Shown piece after piece: positions 7,401 to 44,744 of a stretch of DNA of 64,000 bases. This stretch comes from Bdellovibrionales bacterium (GTDB lineage: Bacteria; Bdellovibrionota; Bdellovibrionia; Bdellovibrionales; JAUICD01): assembly GCA_965262715.1 (NCBI GenBank), contig OZ253553.1:896001-960000 (forward strand), read 5' to 3'. The notes beneath the pieces are model-generated. The model saw only the letters and a list, made by a program, of their open reading frames with translations. It was not told the origin of the DNA and did no database searches. The position numbers were made by a program, and so were the translations under genes. Position 1 is the stretch's first letter; the number at the start of each line of letters is the position of its first letter.

Positions 7401-8506
7401 TCAATATCTAGTGATGTTTGAAAAAAGAGGTCCTCATCGAAGTGAATCACTGTTTGTTCAAAATCTATACGATTCGCTTGATTTATTACTGCAAGTTTTT
7501 TAGATACAAATTGGTCATTCTGAAGGGAGCCTTCTAGTTCAACTTTTCCAAAATAAAATCGTTTAAACCGAAGTCTTTGAGCAGCTGTTTTAAGTTTGAC
7601 ATTTAAGTTTCTGTTTTTCTTCTTTATAAAATGAGCTGAAACATCTAAGGTTCCATTTATTTGTTTTAATTGCTCATTTGGATAGAAAGGTAATATCCAG
7701 TTTTGCGCTGTTTTTAAATTAAAATGAGAACGCCAATGGAATTGGTATTCTCTCTGACAATCATTCAATCTTTTTTGAAATGAACAATGTCCGCTAAAAA
7801 AGTGTAAGTAGTCAGAATGCTTTGCCATATACAAGCTAGAAACAAATAAATCATCTCTACTGATTTGTAAATTTGTTTTGAATTCCCAGTTAGACTCCAT
7901 TTTAGACATATCTTCTGTTTGGTAAGCAAAATTTGGGCTTTTAATAAATAAAGACCATTTTTCATTATCATAACTTAGTCTTAAAAAAAGATCTTTCCAC
8001 TGAATAAATCTTTTTAGATGGTGTATCTTGAGCTGTGTTTTTTCAATGACAATGGAAGAAATTGGTAAGTCTAAATATTTAAAGAAAGTTTCTTTATCTA
8101 AATCTAAAGACATAGAGCCAGATTTACTTTTGTTACTAAATATCTTAGAAGCTTGATGATGTCCAACATCAAATGTAAGACTTGTTTCTTGAACTCTTAA
8201 CTCTTTTATTAAAAAATAACCCGAAAAAAAAGCAGGAATATTTAAGGAAACATTTAACTTTTTAACTTTAAAGTCAGGTAGATGACGTTTCAGTTCCTTT
8301 TGAGTCTTAATTTCAATGTTATATAAACTGATACTTAAAGGGAAAATATTGAAATCAATATCTTGGGGTATAATATGTAATTTTTGATTTTTGGTTTCTG
8401 TGATGATTTGATGCTTTAACCAATCTTTAACATTTTTTTGATGGTAAGATATAACAAACCCCAAAAGCCCAAAAAATATCAATAAAAGAAAGTAAAAATA
8501 TTTCAA
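4493..8506 (-). CDS. tamB: TamB/AsmA-like translocation and assembly module protein
   Basis: 1337 aa, N-terminal TM anchor, beta-rich, DUF490-like C-terminus (SNPALPERDIINLI); 4-nt overlap with the Omp85 gene. Confidence 0.8.
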   Translation of the reverse strand: MKYFYFLLLIFFGLLGFVISYHQKNVKDWLKHQIITETKNQKLHIIPQDIDFNIFPLSISLYNIEIKTQKELKRHLPDFKVKKLNVSLNIPAFFSGYFLIKELRVQETSLTFDVGHHQASKIFSNKSKSGSMSLDLDKETFFKYLDLPISSIVIEKTQLKIHHLKRFIQWKDLFLRLSYDNEKWSLFIKSPNFAYQTEDMSKMESNWEFKTNLQISRDDLFVSSLYMAKHSDYLHFFSGHCSFQKRLNDCQREYQFHWRSHFNLKTAQNWILPFYPNEQLKQINGTLDVSAHFIKKKNRNLNVKLKTAAQRLRFKRFYFGKVELEGSLQNDQFVSKKLAVINQANRIDFEQTVIHFDEDLFFQTSLDIDSLELDKLLANFQVKVPYLKLNVRGKLPCEGHFLPEVQIHCQSENIELSDFVIHKPKSEKRIVAFQSGKIEGEMSIDKYQVTINSNLTIGKTKGVVNGHVNYKSGFLFNFSTPQFNFLDIESLSELKIEGSTALEGSTKGTSQFATISMNLKAKDIWFENYGVGHFESLLEYKKSILSFKKTSGIFGNTEYQGKLDIDLSSSKINAQLNSDHLELSDLRQLIKRKYFFPLEVQALGKVDLKVWGPLKFNRLSYDMNIDTQRGTISKESFDKLIFHIRSRDGEFETKQVEVHKGLGRAFVSSGVGHPNGQIDIQVKGSRFYLVDSEFLRNFGYNILGQNNFNISLQGHIFTPEIKLTGQIEGFRISDVPISMPRYDIEWSSEGVYVNTVLENQTLSLETLIPLNSRSPLFIKLSMNKWDFSPAFALFKQEDLIEEYETSISGKIDISSLSDWIWQADGFIQLDEFILQRGQSDLYLRKPSSIQFENGKMNISDLILTGNNTQFKIEAKDSQKNNLNLSFNGKIDTYMMAFLTPFLEELRGALELNYDLRGSTNRLQMMGSAYIRDGYAKMKEFPHPFENLKIEVLFSEKDIILTDFYTDLTTGNVTANGRVTIEGWKNFPTKISAKARDIQLHIPDNVVTRGNGQIEITRSWFPFLFKGNYTIDTARVEKELEDEENNSSIRYSNLLPESLLKKRFSSIEWDILTFFRSNAYVSNSFIEGNFFGDLRLLGPINNPYFLGEIHFKKDSILKFRDTPFRITKASLRFPNRQEIDPIISLVASAQVKEYDVNISIQGTSKDHMMHFESNPALPERDIINLIALGFTSEEQEDLSSEEQVGQQALNYIGIGKVLKDKTGLEMNFSSTRDASEDFEDRPKVTVRKQWGSQLSTSISRRLGSNADSDPSNLDPVRESPTSDVKIEYQLDDNLSVLGMWENRERHSTKSGSQADSSDVDIETENVLGLDLKYEIEFK

Positions 8507-9732
8507 TTTTTAATAAGCTCCTTCCATTTTGATAATATCAAATCAGCGCAGCGAAAGTGAGGTTTTTGTTTTACAATTTCAGACATAAGTTCAATAGCTT
8601 CATGGTTTTTGTTCAGTCCCCATAAAGCTTTTGCTTTAAAGTAGATAAGGGATAAGATAATATCTGGATCTTCATTCATGTATTGTTTCAGCATTTTATC
8701 TACATGTTCTAAGAGTTCTAAGTAATATTTATGAGCAGAGTAAAGTTCTAGTTTTAAGGAGTCAGAATATTTATTATTTGAATTTTTTCTGGAAGACTTT
8801 GAGGATATGAAGTATTTATCATATTGCTCTAAAGATTGAAGTGTTTCTTCATAAACTCCCATCATAAAAAGGCTCACAGCTAAATCATAAGCATAGTAAG
8901 GTTGTGTTCTAGCTTGTACAAGAAATGAAGGTAAAACTTCCTTTTTTGCTTTTTTTAACACACTTTGAAATTCATCTTCTACTTGTTGGAAGATGCGATG
9001 GATTAAAAATTCTTCCTTAAGTCGAAGTCCTAACTCTATCTGAGTCTTATTTTGAGATATATTTTTTACTTTCTCATTCTCATCTATTTCTTCATCTTCA
9101 TACTTTTCATTAGTTGTGACTTGGGCACCCATTTGAGTGTCTTGTAACTCTTCTTGTACATTATTTATAGTTTTTATATCAGTGATTTGGTTGGTTTTGT
9201 CATAGGCTTGGTCGTTATAATACGTGTCAGTTATATTTACCTGTAAGGTTTTTGCTTGAGAGATTTGAGAGGCTGTCATCTCTGAGGCAACCTTTTTTCT
9301 AGATATACCACCCCAAAGTTCTGTTAGATGAGATTGGACATCCTTCAATTGGTCAGTCCAATTGTTTTCAATATGAGCATCTAAAAGGCTCTCATTATGA
9401 CACATAAAGGATAAAAGTTGTAATTGGCGTATTTCTTCTAATCCAAAAAAAAATAAATCTACAACTTCTTGATCTATGTAGCTATCAAATTTTTTTAACA
9501 CGTAACCAATATCTTGCCATGGAATTTCTTGATATTTTAGTAAACGTTGAGCTACATGGTCACATAGGCTTGCATAAAATCTGCACTGAATAAGAAATTG
9601 AGCGATTGCATGAGCATTGCTATCATTATGCTGGATAGAAGACCAGCGTCGGATAAGAGTATCGGCAATAAATGTTTCTTCCGTCTCAGAAAGCAACATA
9701 TCTTGAATTTCAATCTCTATTTGATTATCCAC
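8503..9732 (-). CDS. Hypothetical protein with TPR-like C-terminus
   Basis: 409-aa ORF coupled to tamB; helical C-terminus YFKAKALWGL. Confidence 0.6.
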   Translation of the reverse strand: MDNQIEIEIQDMLLSETEETFIADTLIRRWSSIQHNDSNAHAIAQFLIQCRFYASLCDHVAQRLLKYQEIPWQDIGYVLKKFDSYIDQEVVDLFFFGLEEIRQLQLLSFMCHNESLLDAHIENNWTDQLKDVQSHLTELWGGISRKKVASEMTASQISQAKTLQVNITDTYYNDQAYDKTNQITDIKTINNVQEELQDTQMGAQVTTNEKYEDEEIDENEKVKNISQNKTQIELGLRLKEEFLIHRIFQQVEDEFQSVLKKAKKEVLPSFLVQARTQPYYAYDLAVSLFMMGVYEETLQSLEQYDKYFISSKSSRKNSNNKYSDSLKLELYSAHKYYLELLEHVDKMLKQYMNEDPDIILSLIYFKAKALWGLNKNHEAIELMSEIVKQKPHFRCADLILSKWKELIKN

Positions 9733-10052
9733 AATCTCTCCAATCTAATAAAAATGCTAAATATTCATGATATTAAAAAAGTTGTAAAGTACTCCAAATT
9801 GCCTTATTTATAGTAAATAGAAAGTATTTTTAATATCGTCTTTAAACATAAGCCTCTATACTTTATTTTAACCAAGTAATACCCAAAAGTGAACCAATAG
9901 TTATTACAAGGTGCAAAATATCTATTTAAATCTAAAGTAGTATTTTCTCATTCTTTGATTTAATCCTGTTACCACTCTATACTTGACTTATTCTAAAAAC
10001 TAGATCACCTATAACAGTTCATAAAAAAAATGAAACAACCGATTTATTAAGT

Positions 10053-11000
10053 ATGGGGTATTTTAAAAAAAGAAAATCATTTTTTTTCTATTTATCTTTG
10101 TCATTGTTTTTTCATGGGTTTTTTGTTTATTTGATTTACTTAACTCCACAATATAAAACTCCAAAACCAGATAGATCCCCTGCATCCTTGATTGCAGTGA
10201 CTATTATGGACAATAAAAACAAGGATCCTCTTAAAGAGAATGCTGCAAAGCAAATTGTAGAGCAAAACCCAGATCTAAGCTATATTCAAAAGTCACCTAA
10301 CAAAAATGCAAAATTTTTAAGTAAGTATCATCAAAAAGTACTTAAAGAAACCGCCTCTAAAAATCCCATCTCTGTAAATAAAGACTCCTCTTTAAAAAAC
10401 ATCCCCAGAAGTGAATTAACACAAAAAGCATCAAAACAAGAGACAGCTATCAATTCTCAAAAAGAAGGTTTATTGCCAAACCTATCTGTGGCCGATCTTA
10501 TACCAAAAACAGACTGGAATCAATATATGAATGTCAAAAAAACAGACACTCAGAAAAAATTATCAGAAAATACTATTAACTTTGAGGATCAAGTCAGTTT
10601 AGGGTTTCAATCCAACGATTATTTGAAGGATATAGAGGAAGGACAGCAAACCTTATTAAATACTAGAGCTTTTAAATTTTATACTTATTATAGTCGGATC
10701 AAACAGCAAGTACAGGCATCATGGAAGTTAATGATAAAAAAAGAAGTAAGAAAACTCTTACTTCAGCAAAGGGAAAGTATTTTAGGAGCTGAACAGAAAA
10801 CAAGTCTGCTTATTACTCTTGATCGTTTTGGAGCTTTAGTGAGTGTTCAAGTCTTAAAAAAATCACATCTTGCTACTTTAGATCATATCGCTGTAAAAAG
10901 CTTCCAACTTACAGCTCCTTTTCCGCATCCTCCAAAAAGCCTTATAGGGGAAAAAGAATTCCTTCAAATTCGTTGGGATTTTATTTTGGAAAATGTATAA
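10053..11000 (+). CDS. TonB C-terminal domain protein (energy transducer TonB family)
   Basis: N-terminal TM with SxxxH; C-terminal TonB-C motif (G.L..V...KKS...LD..A......APFPHPP). Confidence 0.8.
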   Translation: MGYFKKRKSFFFYLSLSLFFHGFFVYLIYLTPQYKTPKPDRSPASLIAVTIMDNKNKDPLKENAAKQIVEQNPDLSYIQKSPNKNAKFLSKYHQKVLKETASKNPISVNKDSSLKNIPRSELTQKASKQETAINSQKEGLLPNLSVADLIPKTDWNQYMNVKKTDTQKKLSENTINFEDQVSLGFQSNDYLKDIEEGQQTLLNTRAFKFYTYYSRIKQQVQASWKLMIKKEVRKLLLQQRESILGAEQKTSLLITLDRFGALVSVQVLKKSHLATLDHIAVKSFQLTAPFPHPPKSLIGEKEFLQIRWDFILENV

Positions 11001-11021
11001 AGAATGCTTTTTCTTGAAGTA

Positions 11022-11711
11022 TCAATAGGCTCCGGATTGAATCAGGAGAAACTTTTTATATAAGATCACTGCCGCCCAAACAAATGAAAGACAAATAAAA
11101 AAAATTCCTAAATAACCTACAAAAAAGGCTATTTTATCATGGTACTGCATGCTATCAAACTTTGTTAAAAGATAGTGCCAATCATGAACATCTGGATTTT
11201 CCTGTCCTATTATTCCTCCAAGTAGAGGCAGTTTTTTATCCCATGCATCATAAATGTAAGGGGCAACGTCTAAAAAGTTGTACCCAATCCACCACAAGCC
11301 AACTGAAGCTCCAAAATTATCTCTCTGCCTCAAAAACTGAATCATGACAGCCGAGGGCATAAGGCATTGCATAAGACTTCCTCCAAAGGCATGCATGGTA
11401 TTTCCTAGAGGTCTAAAAATCCAATGTCCTGCTTCATGGAAGATCAAATTGACATTATGGAGGAAGTAGTCCGTCATGGAATTATTATAAGGGTCTTTAT
11501 TAAAATCTATCTCGTCAAAAAAGCTAGTACCTATAAAAAACAAGGCGATGTAGAGTAAACAGTGAAAAGAAAAAGCAAGAGAACCAACTTCTCTCTCTTC
11601 TACAAAGAATACCCAATTAAAAAAGCTTTGAATAAAGCTCTCTTGTTTTTTAAAAACCTCTTGTTTCTTAAGAGCAGGTGTTATTTTGTATATTCTTCGT
11701 CTTAATGCCAC
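11022..11711 (-). CDS. Membrane protein with HExxH zinc-metalloprotease-like motif (duplicate copy 1)
   Basis: LIFHEAGH and HDW motifs, several TM segments; identical to 14605..15294. Confidence 0.7.
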   Translation of the reverse strand: MALRRRIYKITPALKKQEVFKKQESFIQSFFNWVFFVEEREVGSLAFSFHCLLYIALFFIGTSFFDEIDFNKDPYNNSMTDYFLHNVNLIFHEAGHWIFRPLGNTMHAFGGSLMQCLMPSAVMIQFLRQRDNFGASVGLWWIGYNFLDVAPYIYDAWDKKLPLLGGIIGQENPDVHDWHYLLTKFDSMQYHDKIAFFVGYLGIFFICLSFVWAAVILYKKFLLIQSGAY

Positions 11712-12237
11712 GGTTGTATGGGGCCATGTGTTACTATAACTTCAGGTTGACTAAATAATTTTTGTGATAAATCCAAAATTTGTTGAGTTGTCACTTCATT
11801 GATATGATCGGCATAACTAAAGACTTCTTTATAAGAAATATTATAGATTTCACGGAAGAAAATAGCTGAGCTTAAGGAAGAGTTTTTTTGAAGTGCTATA
11901 TTATAGTGACCTATAAGGTATTTCTTAGCTCTCTCTAATTCTTCTTCTGAGACGAGATGGGTACAAAGTTTTTGAATTTCTATTTTCATCATATCAATTG
12001 CTAATTTTCCTTTATCTGGCTGGCAAGCAATGTAAATAGCAAAAAAACCTGCTTCCTTCCCCATTAGAGAAAAAGGGGTAACCGTGTAAGCTAAAGATGC
12101 CTTATCTCTTAATTCTAAGAACAATCGGCCTGATTGACCTGAAAGAATAGCCTCTAGGACTTCAAGCGCAAATCGGTTTTTATCTCTAAAAGTTAAGCCT
12201 CTATAACCTAATACGATAGATGATTGAGCTTTATCCT
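11702..12237 (-). pseudogene. Duplicated 3' fragment of the M16 peptidase gene
   Basis: Identical to the 3' end of 15285..17999; cut off at the IS boundary. Confidence 0.9.
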
Positions 12238-14157
12238 CCTGACTTCGACGGTTTAAACTTATAAGTTACTGGGATCATTGGATGATACATTACATCATAG
12301 GCACTACAATTGATTTTTAGTTATGTATTAAGTGTATTTTTATTCAATAAGATAAGGTGTTGTAGAGTGCTTAAGTCCCATAATCTGATAGATTTTCAGA
12401 GCTTCCTTACTTATATTTGAAGGTATAGAGTACTTTCTGTTATTGGTTTGATCTACTAATAAACTATGCTGTACATGGATTAAAGCATTTCGTATAACTT
12501 CCGGTGAACAGGATTGGTATTGTATCTTAATTCTGTAAGCTAAGTGTCTTATACAGACTAAACAGATAAAAGCAATGGCTATGTGTGCTTTGATCCGATC
12601 TGATGTCCAGTGAAATATAGGACGTATTTTTAAATCATGCTTAGCTATCCGGAATGTTTCTTCGACTTGCCATAACCCCTTATATTGGCTAATAATGTCT
12701 AAATCATCCATATCTTTGAGGTTTGTTATGACTCCAAACAAACCATCCCACTTTTGATCTTCTTTGACTCGATTTTCATTGACTGAAAGCTTTTGTTTCT
12801 TGCCTGTGACTTTTAAATACTTCTTATAACCGTAATTGTTTAATAAAGTCTTCACATCTTGAGCCTTTGAGAGTTTCTTAACTAAACTATCTATAGTTTG
12901 TTGACGATCATGTCGATCTTTCTCCGCTCTCTTATAAGAATAACAAACTATCACTTTCCTCTTATTATCTTTATCTTCTAATGATTGAATCTTGAAACCT
13001 TCTTGTTTACTGACAATTTTGTACTTTGACTTATCTAATACAAGCTCTTGTTTTACTTTTGGTAATTTCTTAAGCTTAGCTCCTACAATATAATGAAGAT
13101 TCTCATCTTCTAGTGCTTTTAAATTATCTTCACTTAACATTCCTCTATCAGCGACATAAATAGCTTGTTCTAAGTTATATTTAGACTTCATCTCTTTTAT
13201 CACTGGATTTAAGGTATGACCCTCGAAGATAGCACCCGGGAAAGTCTCGTAACTGACAGGAAAACCTTCTTTGGTCACAACGACTGCTAAACACACTTGA
13301 GATTCTTTAAACTTAGCATCTTTACTGTAACCTCTTTGTCTTAAATCATCTTCAATAATTGATTCAAAATACAGTGTCGTACAATCAAAAAACAAAACTT
13401 TCAAAGGCTCTTTAAAAACCTTTTGTGCCACTTGACCTGCCAGTCTCTTTATCTTATCTATCCTTTTGCTATCTAAACGATCCATCATGCGATAAATCTT
13501 CTCTAACGAAATATGAACTCCAAAATCCTCTTCTAAAAATCGACTGCTCTCTCTTTTACTTTGAGGATTAGCTATCCGAGCCATCACTGTATGAAATAAA
13601 ACCCAATGTGATGAATGATAACGACTCACTGGTAAAATGCGATCTAAACCTAATTCCTTGTACATAGCTCCATAAACCTCATGAATACCTACAATGACTC
13701 TTTGATCTTCCCTTAGTTTCTTAAGATCTACTTTTAAGGGTTTATTGCAATGACGAAACTTGGACTCAATCACTTGTTTAGAAATCTCTTCCGGAGCAAA
13801 AAAAGATAATTGATTTTCATTTGTTAGTTTAGCTTTGATGAATTCTCCAAGCTCTTGAAGACGAAATAGCTCATCCTCATCTTGAGCCACTCCGACATGA
13901 CGGATGATCTTTTGGCGAACTTTATTGCCATAACGGATAGAATCAACGATCTGAACTGACTGCCTTGGACTGTTTGGTGTGCTTTTGATTCTTACAAACA
14001 TAAAAATAATTTAATGCTTATTAAAAAAAAAGTCAAAATAAAAATAAAAATAATCTGACTTGGTGTGTTACTAGGCACTACATCGAAAACTTACTCCAAA
14101 ATCCTATAACCATCAATGTTACAAAATCAATACCGAACATAAACCGTCGAAGTCAGG
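12238..14157 (-). mobile_element. IS1634-family insertion sequence, copy 1 (1920 bp)
   Basis: 18-bp perfect TIR CCTGACTTCGACGGTTTA; DDE transposase; second copy at 28107..30026. Confidence 0.93.
12340..14001 (-). CDS. IS1634-family DDE transposase
   Basis: Motifs FFDCTTLYFE, GYSKD, VADRGM, WQVEETFR, RPIFHW. Confidence 0.93.
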   Translation of the reverse strand: MFVRIKSTPNSPRQSVQIVDSIRYGNKVRQKIIRHVGVAQDEDELFRLQELGEFIKAKLTNENQLSFFAPEEISKQVIESKFRHCNKPLKVDLKKLREDQRVIVGIHEVYGAMYKELGLDRILPVSRYHSSHWVLFHTVMARIANPQSKRESSRFLEEDFGVHISLEKIYRMMDRLDSKRIDKIKRLAGQVAQKVFKEPLKVLFFDCTTLYFESIIEDDLRQRGYSKDAKFKESQVCLAVVVTKEGFPVSYETFPGAIFEGHTLNPVIKEMKSKYNLEQAIYVADRGMLSEDNLKALEDENLHYIVGAKLKKLPKVKQELVLDKSKYKIVSKQEGFKIQSLEDKDNKRKVIVCYSYKRAEKDRHDRQQTIDSLVKKLSKAQDVKTLLNNYGYKKYLKVTGKKQKLSVNENRVKEDQKWDGLFGVITNLKDMDDLDIISQYKGLWQVEETFRIAKHDLKIRPIFHWTSDRIKAHIAIAFICLVCIRHLAYRIKIQYQSCSPEVIRNALIHVQHSLLVDQTNNRKYSIPSNISKEALKIYQIMGLKHSTTPYLIE

Positions 14158-14583
14158 ATTAACTTTGAGGATCAAGTCAGTTTAGGGTTTCAATCCAACG
14201 ATTATTTGAAGGATATAGAGGAAGGACAGCAAACCTTATTAAATACTAGAGCTTTTAAATTTTATACTTATTATAGTCGGATCAAACAGCAAGTACAGGC
14301 ATCATGGAAGTTAATGATAAAAAAAGAAGTAAGAAAACTCTTACTTCAGCAAAGGGAAAGTATTTTAGGAGCTGAACAGAAAACAAGTCTGCTTATTACT
14401 CTTGATCGTTTTGGAGCTTTAGTGAGTGTTCAAGTCTTAAAAAAATCACATCTTGCTACTTTAGATCATATCGCTGTAAAAAGCTTCCAACTTACAGCTC
14501 CTTTTCCGCATCCTCCAAAAAGCCTTATAGGGGAAAAAGAATTCCTTCAAATTCGTTGGGATTTTATTTTGGAAAATGTATAA
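14158..14583 (+). pseudogene. Duplicated 3' fragment of the TonB-family gene
   Basis: Identical to the C-terminal part of 10053..11000; lacks the TM anchor. Confidence 0.88.
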
Positions 14584-14604
14584 AGAATGCTTTTTCTTGA
14601 AGTA

Positions 14605-15294
14605 TCAATAGGCTCCGGATTGAATCAGGAGAAACTTTTTATATAAGATCACTGCCGCCCAAACAAATGAAAGACAAATAAAAAAAATTCCTAAATAACC
14701 TACAAAAAAGGCTATTTTATCATGGTACTGCATGCTATCAAACTTTGTTAAAAGATAGTGCCAATCATGAACATCTGGATTTTCCTGTCCTATTATTCCT
14801 CCAAGTAGAGGCAGTTTTTTATCCCATGCATCATAAATGTAAGGGGCAACGTCTAAAAAGTTGTACCCAATCCACCACAAGCCAACTGAAGCTCCAAAAT
14901 TATCTCTCTGCCTCAAAAACTGAATCATGACAGCCGAGGGCATAAGGCATTGCATAAGACTTCCTCCAAAGGCATGCATGGTATTTCCTAGAGGTCTAAA
15001 AATCCAATGTCCTGCTTCATGGAAGATCAAATTGACATTATGGAGGAAGTAGTCCGTCATGGAATTATTATAAGGGTCTTTATTAAAATCTATCTCGTCA
15101 AAAAAGCTAGTACCTATAAAAAACAAGGCGATGTAGAGTAAACAGTGAAAAGAAAAAGCAAGAGAACCAACTTCTCTCTCTTCTACAAAGAATACCCAAT
15201 TAAAAAAGCTTTGAATAAAGCTCTCTTGTTTTTTAAAAACCTCTTGTTTCTTAAGAGCAGGTGTTATTTTGTATATTCTTCGTCTTAATGCCAC
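14605..15294 (-). CDS. Membrane HExxH protein (duplicate copy 2)
   Basis: Identical translation to 11022..11711. Confidence 0.7.
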   Translation of the reverse strand: MALRRRIYKITPALKKQEVFKKQESFIQSFFNWVFFVEEREVGSLAFSFHCLLYIALFFIGTSFFDEIDFNKDPYNNSMTDYFLHNVNLIFHEAGHWIFRPLGNTMHAFGGSLMQCLMPSAVMIQFLRQRDNFGASVGLWWIGYNFLDVAPYIYDAWDKKLPLLGGIIGQENPDVHDWHYLLTKFDSMQYHDKIAFFVGYLGIFFICLSFVWAAVILYKKFLLIQSGAY

Positions 15295-17999
15295 GGTTGT
15301 ATGGGGCCATGTGTTACTATAACTTCAGGTTGACTAAATAATTTTTGTGATAAATCCAAAATTTGTTGAGTTGTCACTTCATTGATATGATCGGCATAAC
15401 TAAAGACTTCTTTATAAGAAATATTATAGATTTCACGGAAGAAAATAGCTGAGCTTAAGGAAGAGTTTTTTTGAAGTGCTATATTATAGTGACCTATAAG
15501 GTATTTCTTAGCTCTCTCTAATTCTTCTTCTGAGACGAGATGGGTACAAAGTTTTTGAATTTCTATTTTCATCATATCAATTGCTAATTTTCCTTTATCT
15601 GGCTGGCAAGCAATGTAAATAGCAAAAAAACCTGCTTCCTTCCCCATTAGAGAAAAAGGGGTAACCGTGTAAGCTAAAGATGCCTTATCTCTTAATTCTA
15701 AGAACAATCGGCCTGATTGACCTGAAAGAATAGCCTCTAGGACTTCAAGCGCAAATCGGTTTTTATCTCTAAAAGTTAAGCCTCTATAACCTAATACGAT
15801 AGATGATTGAGCTTTATCCTTCATCTCATAGAAATAAGTTATTCCCTGAGTCAGTGGTTTTAATAAAGGATAAGGTGTATCTGAGAATTTGCTAAAAGAA
15901 AAGGACTCTATCAGATTTGTAAAAGTTTCTTGTATTTGCTCAAAATCGCAATCTCCAACAATAGATATGACCATTCTTTGAGGGTTCATTACCTTTTTCC
16001 AATAAGAAAGCAAGTCTTCTTGATGGACAATATCCAATGAATCGTTTGTGCCAAGCGGGTCTTTTGCATAAGGATGCCCTTTAAACAATATCTCTTTAAA
16101 AGATCTTATGGTCATCTTTAGAGGAGAGTCTTTGCGTTGAGCCAGCTTTTCTTTCATGGCCATTTTCTCCCTTTCTATAATTTCTTTTAAGAAGAGAGGT
16201 GACTTCAATACACTTTTTAAAAGAATTAAGCTTTGATCTAAAGAAGATGAAAGAGTTGTTAAACTCAAACCCAATGTATGTCTTCCTGAAAAAGCACTTA
16301 AAAAAGAGGCTAATTCATCAAGTTTTTGTTTTAGAAGACCTTCTGGATATTCAGAGGTGCCACAGGACCAAGACCTTCTAGTTAACTCAGAAATACCAAT
16401 AAATGCATCTGGCTCCACAATAGCTCCACCACCTTCAAAGCCTAAATCCAAACTCACAGTAGGTGTTTGAGTGGATTTGTAAACATACATTCTAGCACCT
16501 AATGGCAATTTTATTTCTTTTATCTCTGGCAAGGGTTTTTGTGAGACTTTTGGTGTGACTTTCTTCAAGTCATCATTATGGGCTTTATGATTTAGTGATG
16601 AAAAAAATTCTTTTTCATAGTGTTCAGCCCAATTTTCTAACTTAGTTTTAAGACTTTCTTGAGGGGTATTTTTGGTCATTACACAAAGTGACATATTTTC
16701 AGGAGATAAATATTTTTTAGTAACGTCAATAATATCTTTAATTTTTAACTGGTCAAGCTGGTTAAGGTGCTTTTTCCAACAATCAGGATCGTTCCATAGA
16801 GTTTCATAAAAGCCATATTTTTCTGAAAGGCCATCAACTGTTTCCATGTCATAATATTGATCGCTTTTTATCATGGTGATAGCTTTTTGAAGTTCCTTTA
16901 AAGGTGGATTTTTGGTAAAAAAAGATAACAATTCTTTTGCGAGGCTCTCAAGAGTGATATCGATCTTATCTTCAGAAAGCTGGCAAGAGATAATAAAAAC
17001 TCCACTATCTCTAAGGACATAGGTGTAAGAGCTTACAGAATTGACATAAAGGTTTTGCATTCTTAGTTCTTTATATAATCGAGAACTGTGACCTTGTCCC
17101 ATTATCACAGAAAGGGCTTCCAAAGCTGGTAAGTCATTCCGAAATGAAGATAATCTCCATGCTAAATGGATATGTGCTTCTTCAAATGAGGTTTTTTGAA
17201 CACCAATATTTTTTACTTTTTGAAAGTGAGTAACTTTTTTTTGTAAAGATGTGTGTTTTTTTAAAGCATTAAAGTAATGGTGAATGGAAGATTTAATTTG
17301 AGAAGCTTGAAAGTCACCTGAAATAACAAGAGTCATATTTTGAGGATAATAGTGATCTTGATAGTATTTTTTAATTTGCTCTGGAGTAAAATTTTTAATA
17401 TTCTCCTCATAACCTAAAATAGGATGTCCATAAGGATGTTTAGGATAAATTTTAGAGAAAAGGAGATCAGCTGATTGGCTGTGGGGGTTGTCTTTTGCTC
17501 TTTTTATCTCTTCAATAACAACCTGTCTCTCATCATCAATACTTTTTGCATTAAATTTAGGAAAAATAATCATTTGGCTTAAAGCATCGAAGGCTATTTG
17601 AGTGTAATGACTTGCAATTGTGATATAAAAAACAGTGTGGTCAAAGGAGGTGTAGGCATTAAGCCCTCCTCCTGCTGCTTCAATGAGATTTGCAACTTCT
17701 CCTACCTGGAACTTATCTGTTTCTTTAAAGAGAAGATGCTCAATAAAATGAGTTATACCCTCCTGTCCTCTTTGCTCATCTACGCTACCTGTTTTGACCC
17801 AAATTTGAGCAGATATAACAGGCGATTTGTGGCTCTCAATTAAAAGCACATTTAGGTTATTTGAGAGTTGATATTTTTCATGAGTTAAATTATAAGGATT
17901 TATGCCATCTTCTTTAAAATTTTCTAGCAACGGTGAAGCTGAATATCTTGATAGTTCACCTTCTTTACCTCTTGCAAATGATTGTTTTGGCTTATACAT
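15285..17999 (-). CDS. M16 family (pitrilysin/PqqL-like) zinc peptidase; true start may be a TTG near 17930
   Basis: HFIEH (HxxEH) motif, LNAYTSFDHTVF, two-module architecture. Confidence 0.92.
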   Translation of the reverse strand: MYKPKQSFARGKEGELSRYSASPLLENFKEDGINPYNLTHEKYQLSNNLNVLLIESHKSPVISAQIWVKTGSVDEQRGQEGITHFIEHLLFKETDKFQVGEVANLIEAAGGGLNAYTSFDHTVFYITIASHYTQIAFDALSQMIIFPKFNAKSIDDERQVVIEEIKRAKDNPHSQSADLLFSKIYPKHPYGHPILGYEENIKNFTPEQIKKYYQDHYYPQNMTLVISGDFQASQIKSSIHHYFNALKKHTSLQKKVTHFQKVKNIGVQKTSFEEAHIHLAWRLSSFRNDLPALEALSVIMGQGHSSRLYKELRMQNLYVNSVSSYTYVLRDSGVFIISCQLSEDKIDITLESLAKELLSFFTKNPPLKELQKAITMIKSDQYYDMETVDGLSEKYGFYETLWNDPDCWKKHLNQLDQLKIKDIIDVTKKYLSPENMSLCVMTKNTPQESLKTKLENWAEHYEKEFFSSLNHKAHNDDLKKVTPKVSQKPLPEIKEIKLPLGARMYVYKSTQTPTVSLDLGFEGGGAIVEPDAFIGISELTRRSWSCGTSEYPEGLLKQKLDELASFLSAFSGRHTLGLSLTTLSSSLDQSLILLKSVLKSPLFLKEIIEREKMAMKEKLAQRKDSPLKMTIRSFKEILFKGHPYAKDPLGTNDSLDIVHQEDLLSYWKKVMNPQRMVISIVGDCDFEQIQETFTNLIESFSFSKFSDTPYPLLKPLTQGITYFYEMKDKAQSSIVLGYRGLTFRDKNRFALEVLEAILSGQSGRLFLELRDKASLAYTVTPFSLMGKEAGFFAIYIACQPDKGKLAIDMMKIEIQKLCTHLVSEEELERAKKYLIGHYNIALQKNSSLSSAIFFREIYNISYKEVFSYADHINEVTTQQILDLSQKLFSQPEVIVTHGPIQPWH

Positions 18000-23825: not shown

Positions 23826-25141
23826 GGCTTTGTTGCACAAAGATTTAAGGAAGTATATAAAAGATTAGAGAATTAAGTCAGGCATCTTCCATAGGCTCTA
23901 GGCAACCCCCGCGCCTTGTATTGCTATTATTTTAAGATTTTATTATAGAATAAAATAGTTTAAGAGATATTTACCCTAAGCCGCTAGCCTAGTCCTATTT
24001 CAGAAGTCTTTCACAAATCTCATTCTTAAATTTTTATGCAATAAGATCTTTTATGAGTTTGATATATCTATTACTTTGATTTTTTGTTTTTAATGATTAT
24101 AAAATTTACCCATCCCCAACTTTCACAATCACTAAATCAGAAGGAGCTAGAGATGGGTAAAAATAAAAAAATAAACTGGAGTCTTTATAATAAGTCTCTA
24201 GTCAATAGAGGTCAAATCACTTTTTGGTTTTCAGCAAATATCGTCAAATCTTGGTATGCAAAATGTTCTTCAAAGCAAGGGGGTCAACAAGTTTACTCTG
24301 ATAAAGCTATTGAAACTCTTAATATATTAAGATTCATATTTGGTTTAAAATTGCGATCTACAGAAGGTTTTGCTAAATCCCTAGTTGAACTTATGGGTCT
24401 TGATATAGAAATACCTAATTATACAACTCTTTGCAGAAGATTACAGAAGTTATCAGTAAAACTAGAAAGAAAGCTATCTTCTCACAAGAATCCTCATATT
24501 GTCATTGATTCCACAGGTCTTAAAGTTTATGGGGAGGGAGAGTGGAAAGTCCGTCAGCATGGGTATTCTAAGAGAAGGACATGGAAGAAGCTACATTTAG
24601 CGGTAGATGAGTCAAATTCCCAGATTAAGGCATCTGTTTTAAGTGATAATTCTGTAAAGGATAATGAGGTTTTTGAAGAGTTATTGACAGGATATGAAGA
24701 TGAGATAGGCCAAGTTTCAGTTGATGGGGCTTATGACTGTAAGAATTGTTATCAGTTTACAAGTGATAGAAGTATAAAATTGGTTGCTCCACCTAGAAAG
24801 AATGCTGTGATTAAGAGGCATGGAAATTGTCGAGGATCGCCGCTTCTTAGAGATACTTATATTAGAGAAATCAAGAAGATGGGTAGAAAGAAGTGGAAAA
24901 AAAAACATAAATATCACAGGAGGTCTATATCAGAAACAGCTATGTATAGATTTAAAACTTTATTAGGTGATAAATTATCTTCTAGAGAATTTCATCGTCA
25001 AGCAAATGAAGTGTTTATTAAATGTAAAATCCTTAATCAGATGATTGTGCCTTCTTCTCTTTGATAAAAAAATATTAAATGACAATCTTACTTAAAAAAT
25101 AAATAAAATAAAAACTATTTAAATCTTTGTGCAACAAGGCC
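23826..25141 (+). mobile_element. IS5-family (IS903 group) insertion sequence, copy A (1316 bp)
   Basis: TIR GGC(T/C)TTGTTGCACAAAGATTTAA; 9-bp TSD TGTCTATAC at 23817..23825 and 25142..25150. Confidence 0.93.
24153..25064 (+). CDS. IS903-like DDE transposase (start taken after the AAGGAG RBS)
   Basis: NWSLYNKSLVNRG, IDSTGLK, DGAYD, YHRRSISETAMYRFK. Confidence 0.92.
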   Translation: MGKNKKINWSLYNKSLVNRGQITFWFSANIVKSWYAKCSSKQGGQQVYSDKAIETLNILRFIFGLKLRSTEGFAKSLVELMGLDIEIPNYTTLCRRLQKLSVKLERKLSSHKNPHIVIDSTGLKVYGEGEWKVRQHGYSKRRTWKKLHLAVDESNSQIKASVLSDNSVKDNEVFEELLTGYEDEIGQVSVDGAYDCKNCYQFTSDRSIKLVAPPRKNAVIKRHGNCRGSPLLRDTYIREIKKMGRKKWKKKHKYHRRSISETAMYRFKTLLGDKLSSREFHRQANEVFIKCKILNQMIVPSSL

Positions 25142-27816: not shown

Positions 27817-28106
27817 AATAAAGCTTATTATTGTGCTGTTGTCGTCGCTGCTGCTACTGATAATGGTCTCGCTTCTGAATAAGGGCCTACTATAATAGTA
27901 TCTGCATCAATAACTACACGAATGCGAACTCTCCAATAATAGGTTCCATCATTAAGCGTATTTGCAAGAGTGAAACTTTTTGATGGATTTGCTAAATCTG
28001 AAATATCTATAGTGCCTGTTGCTTCAATACTGCTAAACGCTTGATCAGAAGCAAGTTGAAATTCATATTGAATGCTATAGACGCTAATAAGAGTAGTGAG
28101 GATAGT
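27817..28106. repeat. Left copy of the 290-bp direct repeat flanking IS1634-like copy 2 (duplicated 3' end of the lipoprotein gene)
   Basis: aataaagctt...gaggatagt recurs at 30027..30316. Confidence 0.97.
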
Positions 28107-30026
28107 CCTGACTTCGACGGTTTATGTTCGGTATTGATTTTGTAACATTGATGGTTATAGGATTTTGGAGTAAGTTTTCGATGTAGTGCCTAGTAACACA
28201 CCAAGTCAGATTATTTTTATTTTTATTTTGACTTTTTTTTTAATAAGCATTAAATTATTTTTATGTTTGTAAGAATCAAAAGCACACCAAACAGTCCAAG
28301 GCAGTCAGTTCAGATCGTTGATTCTATCCGTTATGGCAATAAAGTTCGCCAAAAGATCATCCGTCATGTCGGAGTGGCTCAAGATGAGGATGAGCTATTT
28401 CGTCTTCAAGAGCTTGGAGAATTCATCAAAGCTAAACTAACAAATGAAAATCAATTATCTTTTTTTGCTCCGGAAGAGATTTCTAAACAAGTGATTGAGT
28501 CCAAGTTTCGTCATTGCAATAAACCCTTAAAAGTAGATCTTAAGAAACTAAGGGAAGATCAAAGAGTCATTGTAGGTATTCATGAGGTTTATGGAGCTAT
28601 GTACAAGGAATTAGGTTTAGATCGCATTTTACCAGTGAGTCGTTATCATTCATCACATTGGGTTTTATTTCATACAGTGATGGCTCGGATAGCTAATCCT
28701 CAAAGTAAAAGAGAGAGCAGTCGATTTTTAGAAGAGGATTTTGGAGTTCATATTTCGTTAGAGAAGATTTATCGCATGATGGATCGTTTAGATAGCAAAA
28801 GGATAGATAAGATAAAGAGACTGGCAGGTCAAGTGGCACAAAAGGTTTTTAAAGAGCCTTTGAAAGTTTTGTTTTTTGATTGTACGACACTGTATTTTGA
28901 ATCAATTATTGAAGATGATTTAAGACAAAGAGGTTACAGTAAAGATGCTAAGTTTAAAGAATCTCAAGTGTGTTTAGCAGTCGTTGTGACCAAAGAAGGT
29001 TTTCCTGTCAGTTACGAGACTTTCCCGGGTGCTATCTTCGAGGGTCATACCTTAAATCCAGTGATAAAAGAGATGAAGTCTAAATATAACTTAGAACAAG
29101 CTATTTATGTCGCTGATAGAGGAATGTTAAGTGAAGATAATTTAAAAGCACTAGAAGATGAGAATCTTCATTATATTGTAGGAGCTAAGCTTAAGAAATT
29201 ACCAAAAGTAAAACAAGAGCTTGTATTAGATAAGTCAAAGTACAAAATTGTCAGTAAACAAGAAGGTTTCAAGATTCAATCATTAGAAGATAAAGATAAT
29301 AAGAGGAAAGTGATAGTTTGTTATTCTTATAAGAGAGCGGAGAAAGATCGACATGATCGTCAACAAACTATAGATAGTTTAGTTAAGAAACTCTCAAAGG
29401 CTCAAGATGTGAAGACTTTATTAAACAATTACGGTTATAAGAAGTATTTAAAAGTCACAGGCAAGAAACAAAAGCTTTCAGTCAATGAAAATCGAGTCAA
29501 AGAAGATCAAAAGTGGGATGGTTTGTTTGGAGTCATAACAAACCTCAAAGATATGGATGATTTAGACATTATTAGCCAATATAAGGGGTTATGGCAAGTC
29601 GAAGAAACATTCCGGATAGCTAAGCATGATTTAAAAATACGTCCTATATTTCACTGGACATCAGATCGGATCAAAGCACACATAGCCATTGCTTTTATCT
29701 GTTTAGTCTGTATAAGACACTTAGCTTACAGAATTAAGATACAATACCAATCCTGTTCACCGGAAGTTATACGAAATGCTTTAATCCATGTACAGCATAG
29801 TTTATTAGTAGATCAAACCAATAACAGAAAGTACTCTATACCTTCAAATATAAGTAAGGAAGCTCTGAAAATCTATCAGATTATGGGACTTAAGCACTCT
29901 ACAACACCTTATCTTATTGAATAAAAATACACTTAATACATAACTAAAAATCAATTGTAGTGCCTATGATGTAATGTATCATCCAATGATCCCAGTAACT
30001 TATAAGTTTAAACCGTCGAAGTCAGG
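28107..30026 (+). mobile_element. IS1634-family insertion sequence, copy 2 (1920 bp)
   Basis: Same TIRs and length as copy 1, inverted orientation. Confidence 0.93.
28263..29924 (+). CDS. IS1634-family DDE transposase
   Basis: Identical translation to 12340..14001. Confidence 0.93.
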   Translation: MFVRIKSTPNSPRQSVQIVDSIRYGNKVRQKIIRHVGVAQDEDELFRLQELGEFIKAKLTNENQLSFFAPEEISKQVIESKFRHCNKPLKVDLKKLREDQRVIVGIHEVYGAMYKELGLDRILPVSRYHSSHWVLFHTVMARIANPQSKRESSRFLEEDFGVHISLEKIYRMMDRLDSKRIDKIKRLAGQVAQKVFKEPLKVLFFDCTTLYFESIIEDDLRQRGYSKDAKFKESQVCLAVVVTKEGFPVSYETFPGAIFEGHTLNPVIKEMKSKYNLEQAIYVADRGMLSEDNLKALEDENLHYIVGAKLKKLPKVKQELVLDKSKYKIVSKQEGFKIQSLEDKDNKRKVIVCYSYKRAEKDRHDRQQTIDSLVKKLSKAQDVKTLLNNYGYKKYLKVTGKKQKLSVNENRVKEDQKWDGLFGVITNLKDMDDLDIISQYKGLWQVEETFRIAKHDLKIRPIFHWTSDRIKAHIAIAFICLVCIRHLAYRIKIQYQSCSPEVIRNALIHVQHSLLVDQTNNRKYSIPSNISKEALKIYQIMGLKHSTTPYLIE

Positions 30027-30316
30027 AATAAAGCTTATTATTGTGCTGTTGTCGTCGCTGCTGCTACTGATAATGGTCTCGCTTCTGAATAAGGGCCTAC
30101 TATAATAGTATCTGCATCAATAACTACACGAATGCGAACTCTCCAATAATAGGTTCCATCATTAAGCGTATTTGCAAGAGTGAAACTTTTTGATGGATTT
30201 GCTAAATCTGAAATATCTATAGTGCCTGTTGCTTCAATACTGCTAAACGCTTGATCAGAAGCAAGTTGAAATTCATATTGAATGCTATAGACGCTAATAA
30301 GAGTAGTGAGGATAGT
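30027..30316. repeat. Right copy of the 290-bp direct repeat
   Basis: Matches 27817..28106. Confidence 0.97.
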
Positions 30317-43428: not shown

Positions 43429-44744
43429 GGCCTTGTTGCACAAAGATTTAAATAGTTTTTATTTTATTTATTTTTTAAGTAAGATTGTCATTTAATATTT
43501 TTTTATCAAAGAGAAGAAGGCACAATCATCTGATTAAGGATTTTACATTTAATAAACACTTCATTTGCTTGACGATGAAATTCTCTAGAAGATAATTTAT
43601 CACCTAATAAAGTTTTAAATCTATACATAGCTGTTTCTGATATAGACCTCCTGTGATATTTATGTTTTTTTTTCCACTTCTTTCTACCCATCTTCTTGAT
43701 TTCTCTAATATAAGTATCTCTAAGAAGCGGCGATCCCCGACAATTTCCATGCCTCTTAATCACAGCATTCTTTCTAGGTGGAGCAACCAATTTTATACTT
43801 CTATCACTTGTAAACTGATAACAATTCTTACAGTCATAAGCCCCATCAACTGAAACTTGGCCTATCTCATCTTCATATCCTGTCAATAACTCTTCAAAAA
43901 CCTCATTATCCTTTACAGAATTATCACTTAAAACAGATGCCTTAATCTGGGAATTTGACTCATCTACCGCTAAATGTAGCTTCTTCCATGTCCTTCTCTT
44001 AGAATACCCATGCTGACGGACTTTCCACTCTCCCTCCCCATAAACTTTAAGACCTGTGGAATCAATGACAATATGAGGATTCTTGTGAGAAGATAGCTTT
44101 CTTTCTAGTTTTACTGATAACTTCTGTAATCTTCTGCAAAGAGTTGTATAATTAGGTATTTCTATATCAAGACCCATAAGTTCAACTAGGGATTTAGCAA
44201 AACCTTCTGTAGATCGCAATTTTAAACCAAATATGAATCTTAATATATTAAGAGTTTCAATAGCTTTATCAGAGTAAACTTGTTGACCCCCTTGCTTTGA
44301 AGAACATTTTGCATACCAAGATTTGACGATATCTGCTGAAAACCAAAAAGTGATTTGACCTCTATTGACTAGAGACTTATTATAAAGACTCCAGTTTATT
44401 TTTTTATTTTTACCCATCTCTAGCTCCTTCTGATTTAGTGATTGTGAAAGTTGGGGATGGGTAAATTTTATAATCATTAAAAACAAAAAATCAAAGTAAT
44501 AGATATATCAAACTCAGGAAAGATCTTATTGCATAAAAATTTAAGAATGAGATTTGTGAAAGACTTCTGAAATAGGACTAGGCTAGCGGCTTAGGGTAAA
44601 TATCTCTTAAACTATTTTATTCTATAATAAAATCTTAAAATAATAGCAATACAAGGCGCGGGGGTTGCCTAGAGCCTATGGAAGATGCCTGACTTAATTC
44701 TCTAATCTTTTATATACTTCCTTAAATCTTTGTGCAACAAAGCC
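43429..44744 (-). mobile_element. IS903-like insertion sequence, copy B (1316 bp)
   Basis: Same TIRs; 9-bp TSD ACTTGTAAC at 43420..43428 and 44745..44753. Confidence 0.93.
43506..44417 (-). CDS. IS903-like transposase
   Basis: One amino-acid difference from copy A (N/D). Confidence 0.92.
   Translation of the reverse strand: MGKNKKINWSLYNKSLVNRGQITFWFSADIVKSWYAKCSSKQGGQQVYSDKAIETLNILRFIFGLKLRSTEGFAKSLVELMGLDIEIPNYTTLCRRLQKLSVKLERKLSSHKNPHIVIDSTGLKVYGEGEWKVRQHGYSKRRTWKKLHLAVDESNSQIKASVLSDNSVKDNEVFEELLTGYEDEIGQVSVDGAYDCKNCYQFTSDRSIKLVAPPRKNAVIKRHGNCRGSPLLRDTYIREIKKMGRKKWKKKHKYHRRSISETAMYRFKTLLGDKLSSREFHRQANEVFIKCKILNQMIVPSSL

Follow-up and report, generated by a model that had tools for sequence, protein, structure and literature searches.

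In a 64,000-nucleotide stretch of a Bdellovibrionales bacterium genome (GCA_965262715.1, contig OZ253553.1, positions 896,001 to 960,000; hereafter the window), an insertion sequence (IS) of the IS1634 family, element A, lies between two exact copies of a 1,663-bp direct repeat that are likely the target-site duplication (TSD) of a single insertion. The copies (window positions 10575-12237 and 14158-15820) have 0 mismatches, their identity ends sharply on both sides, and the 1,920-bp spacer between them (12238-14157) is bounded by perfect 18-bp inverted repeats that each touch a repeat copy with zero gap. This is the structure as assembled, the genome being one 2.94-Mb contig (G000:C1). Long variable TSDs of IS1634 and IS1549 have been known since the late 1990s, and the repeat is a real feature of the assembly and most likely a true TSD at the upper tail of that trait. 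Three features go beyond earlier accounts: kilobase lengths that occur regularly, a base signature shared by the two joins, and a short-TSD control from the same genome.

The target region is convergent, with a tonB-like gene on the plus strand and an M16 peptidase gene, then an HExxH membrane protein gene, on the minus strand. Because the repeat contains the 3' ends of both outer genes, each of them survives on one side, and in silico deletion of the element with one repeat copy leaves both flanking reading frames unaltered. Both outer boundaries of the repeat lie inside intact open reading frames (ORFs) and have no terminal repeat; no element copy is present at either of them. The assembly therefore confirms the original prediction of an exact repeat abutting both terminal inverted repeats, with the tonB-like gene whole on the left, the M16 peptidase gene whole on the right and the HExxH gene present twice. 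The two HExxH protein copies are identical.

Flanking repeats in the host genome

Element A has nine insertions in its own genome, with full copies 99.5-100% identical and one copy nested in another. In place of the 5-6 bp AT-rich TSD of typical IS1634 members, all nine are abutted by longer repeats, of 87, 233, 238, 244, 290, 294, 337, 345 and 1,663 bp, and among these insertions no flank is common to different copies. The possibility that the other genomic copies have only short TSDs, raised with the original prediction, is contradicted by this survey. Four further IS1634 types (B, C, the D group and E) are present. Among the two-ended insertions of types A-D (several one-ended remnants were excluded), 31/34 have repeats of 38-1,666 bp, including five above 1 kb that are all exact (1,182, 1,340, 1,593, 1,663 and 1,666 bp). 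One of the other three repeats is broken by a later IS256, one is 4 bp and one is unresolved in a tandem array. Clade E, also of the IS1634 family, has 7 bp at both of its two full copies, and control IS searched to 5 kb have 3-9 bp (IS256, n=9), 0-7 bp (IS30, n=19) and 0-5 bp (IS3, n=8). Since these same-genome controls and clade E leave at most 9 bp, we assign the long-repeat trait to the element; it follows the transposase clade, neither host nor assembler.

Empty alleles within the genome support duplication upon insertion in two cases, the nested 244-bp repeat and a 50-bp repeat at 294211, for which a 4,013-bp inverted paralogue (G000:C1:265027-269039 and 296167-300179) supplies the empty allele. 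The nested element A (G000:C1:2903764-2907847) has 7 mismatches in its 244-bp duplication, 6 of them clustered over 34 bp in the outer left part; its inner copy has variant ends. At a D-group element (G000:C1:1340305-1342254) the duplication is no longer than 4 bp, as an empty paralogue lying 2 kb upstream confirms. Short TSDs are an occasional product of the long-TSD clade (also 8 bp at locus L103 and 4 bp at L150), with a gap in lengths from 8 to ~33 bp. A non-coding 311-bp derivative of clade E, resembling a miniature inverted-repeat transposable element, has a 7-bp duplication (G000:C1:1368793-1369103).

Repeat lengths in other genomes

We examined 120 loci, each of ~19.5 kb, in nine genomes belonging to the same order, taken from the top of match lists (217 matches counted), and added 6 of 22 further loci, those with long flanks. 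Removal of 19 loci without a recognisable end pair and 1 duplicate from these 126 left 106 two-ended loci, in which repeats up to ~8.7 kb could be detected. Repeats of at least 20 bp are present at 68 loci (from nine genomes plus five single loci), repeats of 4-8 bp at 6 (four in short-TSD clades), and 32 are without a repeat at their junctions. Nine flank cross-matches between different copies, together with several interrupted repeats, account for part of those 32. Five repeats, in three genomes, are of kilobase length: 1,161, 1,370 and ~3,350 bp (G301), 1,406 bp (G338) and 1,701 bp (G360).

Pooling the 31 repeats of the host genome with the 68 found elsewhere gives a range of 37 to ~3,350 bp and a median of 237 bp (n=99). 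Lengths above 514 bp make up 21 of these and lengths of at least 1 kb make up 10, spread over four assemblies, and the 1,663-bp repeat ranks 96th. A log-normal distribution is not rejected (p=0.20, computed before one duplicate row was removed), and the tail exponent is ~ -2.2 +/- 0.2.

Named isolates with long repeats include an Aliarcobacter plasmid (682 bp), a Corynebacterium composite element (513 bp) and Persicobacter (~410 bp, on a plasmid, and 33 bp). In Mycoplasmopsis, 5 of 13 copies were measured, giving 43, 53 and 255 bp and two interrupted cases; these M. gallopavonis copies have a terminal motif in common with element D. No repeat was found at the Dietzia and Microbacterium loci examined, and Mesorhizobium and Acidiphilium have 5 bp at 5/6 copies. 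The Corynebacterium composite transposon, on a plasmid (L169:4658-11035), consists of two IS1634 copies that enclose genes for an SMR transporter and a TetR protein, and its 513-bp duplication copies a small ORF. In genome G299, three copies (L134-L136) have cyclically swapped flanks (26-, 800- and 524-bp matches), so that long TSDs can serve as barcodes of past rearrangements.

Signature at the joins

Half-sites were read on the strand joined by each element end, and the first target base was scored. Element ends join 5' of an A at 55/60 half-sites in the host genome (p ~3e-21); A is also first at 121/136 half-sites elsewhere and at 17 of the 20 kilobase-scale half-sites. No microhomology was found between the two ends of the duplicated stretch (0.37 vs 0.83 random). 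Because the A rule holds at all lengths, with neither microhomology nor inverted likeness, both ends resemble ordinary strand transfers by the transposase, made independently of each other, at any distance. Hairpin or cruciform capture was considered and rejected: paired half-sites have no inverted-repeat likeness and are no more alike than shuffled pairs. Promoter seeking was likewise rejected, with a -10-like box near 19/60 half-sites vs 23.2 +/- 3.9 at random, 5' gene ends inside 8/30 TSDs vs 12.2 expected, and a consensus scan of the locus at chance level. The sole element A junction that breaks the A rule is the flank of G000:C1:2907848, where the target resembles the element's own end over 8 bases.

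Recombination between two nearby independent insertions would likewise leave an A at each junction, and copies do recombine with each other, as the nine flank cross-matches indicate; IS1634-flanked repeats of 8-13 kb are described in the available text on M. mycoides (PMC1798306). Such recombination, or one-ended transposition into a sister chromatid, should leave one outer boundary of the repeat occupied by an element, or would require a double crossover as well as two insertions in the same orientation no more than 1.7 kb apart. The outer boundaries are clean, long repeats are the rule (31/34) and their lengths run unbroken from 37 bp to 3.35 kb, and we consider this origin very improbable. 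Slighter still is the chance that host processes made the duplication and that the element filled a DNA break where its two copies meet. An IS481 element at the join of a 60-kb duplication is reported in the accessible part of PMC11708052, which also cites an "insertion with long target duplication" of restriction-modification genes. Host breaks, however, would not yield an A at 17 of 20 kilobase junctions, the ends of the stretch have no microhomology or repeat, and the restriction to one clade would be unexplained when 36 other IS have short TSDs.

Proposed mechanism

The duplication was very probably made in one event by the transposase. The ordinary outcome is a long repeat, the polarity is that of duplication in almost every case, and the lengths form a continuum whose heavy tail reaches the kilobase range. 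The same base signature at both joins at every length and one smooth distribution to more than 3 kb narrow the options; a fixed stagger from one bent target cannot give 1.7 kb. We lean toward a version in which distant half-sites are captured across a looped target. The two element ends would attack opposite strands 1,663 bp apart, likely across such a loop, with each active site of the transposase choosing a half-site that starts with A, the two lying on different segments of duplex. In relatives with short TSDs the spacer between half-sites is 5-7 bp; here it would bulge out as a loop. Host replication or repair would then open and duplicate the intervening DNA, either by synthesis that starts at both target 3' ends or when a replication fork arrives. 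Polymer contact statistics have exponents of 1.5-2.2.

A single event could also proceed stepwise or be coupled to a fork: after one end has joined, a helicase, a polymerase with strand-displacing activity or a replication fork advances before the other end joins, at a distance that varies. A directional process of this kind suits the fixed polarity (31/34 insertions in the host genome are duplications), requires no tight loop for very short repeats, and is in keeping with the length of nine of the ten kilobase cases (1.16-1.70 kb), which is near the size of bacterial Okazaki fragments. The tenth case, however, reaches ~3.35 kb, and a simple exponential is weakly rejected (p=0.026). With origin and terminus placed by GC skew, there is no replichore orientation bias (17/31 on the leading strand), and length is related neither to origin distance (rho 0.07, p=0.71) nor to orientation (p=0.37). 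We regard this course as rather unlikely. The original prediction ascribed the repeat to widely staggered strand transfer or replication-coupled integration. The repeat does behave as a long target duplication, given the 9/9 insertions and the A rule at kilobase half-sites, but a choice between the two origins is unsupported, as nothing separates them and no replichore signal is present.

Extended to the broad IS1634 clade, the proposal is more tentative. On a single looped molecule, the two active sites may each capture a half-site beginning with A, independently of the other and at separations from tens to thousands of bases. Lengths would follow DNA contact statistics, and whole genes would routinely be duplicated in a manner precisely reversible by recombination; we find this plausible and stop short of favoring it. 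If true, it would offer a direct route to gene duplication and to reversible insertion, with the transposase acting as a one-step gene duplicator, and IS annotation tools that seek only short TSDs would misread such sites as rearrangements. Homologous recombination between the repeats is predicted to remove the element precisely or to amplify the unit. Element A is intact and recently active (two copies are identical, and one is inserted into itself), and for domain swaps there are sister clades whose TSDs are 5-7 bp, among them clade E of this genome.

Contig evidence

Public contigs of four runs were compared with window positions 8000-14157; by record X2 and X5 come from the same sample, and X6 comes from another study. 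The right junction is present in X2 at single-copy depth (13.6) and on a 6,981-bp X6 contig. One X6 contig holds the element end, the whole repeat and downstream DNA, and X6 has no cover upstream of the repeat. X1 contains only a ~90% identical relative in fragments, with no junction. The depth of the element implies ~12 copies in X2 and 8 in X5, vs 10 in the assembly, for which ongoing transposition or depth noise are possible reasons.

Several observations weigh against a single transposase-made event or its looped version. The left junction is in none of the listed contig records, and an exact search of metagenome contigs for it gave 0 matches, in a search that may omit this genome's own records. 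The repeat-bearing X2 contig has a mean depth of 13.5, compared with 13.0 upstream; a fixed state with two copies should give 16.1, and the shortfall could mean a mixed population. Among loci elsewhere, 32/106 are without a junction repeat, and the cultured-isolate loci examined have no repeat above 1 kb (maximum 682 bp). No de novo insertion was seen, and lengths below 400 bp have no helical periodicity (best p ~0.09). Repeats of 33-50 bp, and the reported lower bound of 8 bp, are very tight for a duplex loop. The fit of the tail to contact statistics is weak support, because selection and recombinational loss reshape the tail.

The contigs also bear on whether the structure is an artefact or a mixture, either because sequences of two strains or alleles were merged in the consensus, or because recombination has already removed the element and one repeat copy from many cells. 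In X2, X5 and X6 there are contigs that pass directly from the repeat to the DNA downstream, and X5 record 17 reads as an empty allele; the low X2 depth and the empty left-junction search also favor this explanation. X5, however, is without the right junction that is seen in the same sample's X2. The five listed records at the downstream terminal repeat (IRR) explain all depth in that bin, and judged by their loosely matched letters they seem to cover only some five of the 10 junctions of this kind, so that junctions are often lost from contigs. As junctions of other copies are also missing, and X5 lacks a junction found in its own sample, the absence of the left junction is weak evidence. The right junction recurs in another study, both junctions follow the A rule, the ten kilobase cases come from four assemblies, and the 36 control IS in this assembly have no such repeats. 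An artefact or mixture is accordingly improbable.

Relatives provided no comparison with an empty site: no syntenic empty allele was seen, and in the same-genus genome G001 the three genes are far apart.

Effect on genes

Gene disruption was counted on simple ORF calls of at least 90 aa. Six of the 31 IS1634 insertions in the host genome lie wholly inside an ORF, where random placement would break 16.2/31 at the same TSD lengths and 24.0/31 with short TSDs. The short-TSD control IS are inside ORFs in the same share (7/36), which indicates that surviving insertions are equally filtered by selection. As 31/60 half-sites are in coding DNA, long TSDs let junctions fall there, widening the tolerated target space. 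A whole ORF is contained in 5/30 long TSDs. Insertion of this kind had been described as non-disruptive and gene-duplicating. At this locus no gene is broken and the HExxH gene is duplicated; as a general claim, non-disruptive is overstated, given the insertions inside ORFs at the control rate and the few long TSDs that hold a whole ORF.

Transposase and family assignment

The transposase matches the NCBIfam IS1634 profile NF033559 at 381.8 bits (cut-off 100), which upholds the predicted family. In the available text of a 2008 review, IS1634 members are 1,500-2,000 bp long with a single ORF, ends of the form C-----YT and a YREK motif usually without its Arg (PMC2266710). Element A agrees in size and ORF content, with 1,920 bp, a single 553-aa ORF and ends starting CCTGACTT. 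Y440-x2-L-x3-E447-x6-K454 replaces YREK, with Leu443 at the Arg position. D206, D285 and E447 are invariant in the transposase alignment and, by their position, probably form the catalytic DDE triad. The predicted fold (mean predicted local distance difference test score 73.5, from a 5-sequence alignment) suggests Tn5 transposase as the nearest structure (1muh, E 1.8e-7, template modelling score 0.35). Tn5/IS50, of the IS4 family, differs in its fixed 8-9 bp TSD and complete YREK, according to the accessible part of PMC2266710.

Types A-E all exceed the NF033559 cut-off, and the transposases of elements A-D are ~30-38% identical to that of A. By quick methods, in which long branches meet, long-TSD transposases separate from short-TSD ones (Shimodaira-Hasegawa-like approximate likelihood ratio test 99; FastTree 0.94). 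Element A groups with long-TSD Mycoplasmopsis and actinobacterial copies, in a tree drawn without the named elements IS1634 and IS1549. A candidate determinant of long TSDs was a helix with a linker that follows the N-terminal sheet in long-TSD transposases and is missing in clade E; it was rejected because the transposases of Mesorhizobium and Acidiphilium, whose TSDs are 5 bp, also contain it.

Relation to known systems

Element A is closest in kind to the long-TSD type of IS1634 and IS1549, with which it shares an IS1634-family DDE transposase, a length of ~1.9 kb and long variable repeats abutting both ends. In the accessible part of the 2008 review, TSDs are typically 5-6 bp in the family and 8-514 bp for IS1549 and IS1634, and the review states that no model of the mechanism had been put forward (PMC2266710). 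Here, in contrast, the TSD is 1,663 bp, 21/99 exceed the reported maximum, and whole genes are duplicated. Short-TSD members (ISPfe2, ISGka5, clade E, and the Mesorhizobium and Acidiphilium copies) belong to the same NCBIfam family and have a similar terminal motif, but their TSDs are 5-7 bp as measured here and in the portions seen of PMC3281130 and PMC8024623, which give 6-bp direct repeats, and they stand apart on quick trees. The Dup-IS-Dup arrangement of IS481 in Pseudomonas fluorescens SBW25 also has an IS at the join of a direct duplication and is readily lost cleanly, as far as the available text goes (PMC11708052). It is a single 60-kb event tied to repetitive extragenic palindromic (REP) repeats, whereas here one transposase clade ordinarily yields such duplications, and both joins bear a base signature. 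A literature search, with most subscription papers outside its reach, listed no paper that deals specifically with IS1634 TSDs of kilobase length or with how they arise; PMC11004492, PMC3053259, PMC9296519 and PMC13548323 contributed nothing further.

Locus features

Coordinates of the features described are collected below.

Features of the element A locus and of a second copy in the window (window coordinates)
Feature	Positions	Strand	Remarks
Target duplication (likely), left copy	10575..12237	+	First base A, last base T
Target duplication (likely), right copy	14158..15820	+	Identity to left copy; on one X6 contig with element end and downstream DNA
IS1634-family insertion sequence, element A, 1,920 bp	12238..14157	-	Family profile, inverted ends
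18-bp terminal inverted repeat downstream of transposase (IRR)	12238..12255	+	
18-bp terminal inverted repeat upstream of transposase (IRL)	14140..14157	-	
Transposase, 553 aa	12340..14001	-	NF033559
tonB-like gene, 315 aa	10053..11000	+	PF13103; intact; 3' part repeated at 14158-14583
HExxH membrane protein gene, 229 aa, extra copy	11022..11711	-	Same strand as transposase, downstream of it
HExxH membrane protein gene, native-place copy	14605..15294	-	Behind M16 gene
M16 peptidase gene, 904 aa	15285..17999	-	PF00675/PF05193; intact; 3' end repeated at 11702-12237
Second element A copy, identical	28107..30026	+	290-bp duplication, 27817-28106 = 30027-30316

The HExxH membrane protein has no Pfam match up to E=1. 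Among 20 relatives, its gene was found in just 3, each with a single copy, and these three belong to the same family. The host genome is rich in IS256, IS30, IS3 and IS1634 copies, and the window contains two copies of another IS, of 1,316 bp, at 23826-25141 and 43429-44744, with a short duplication.

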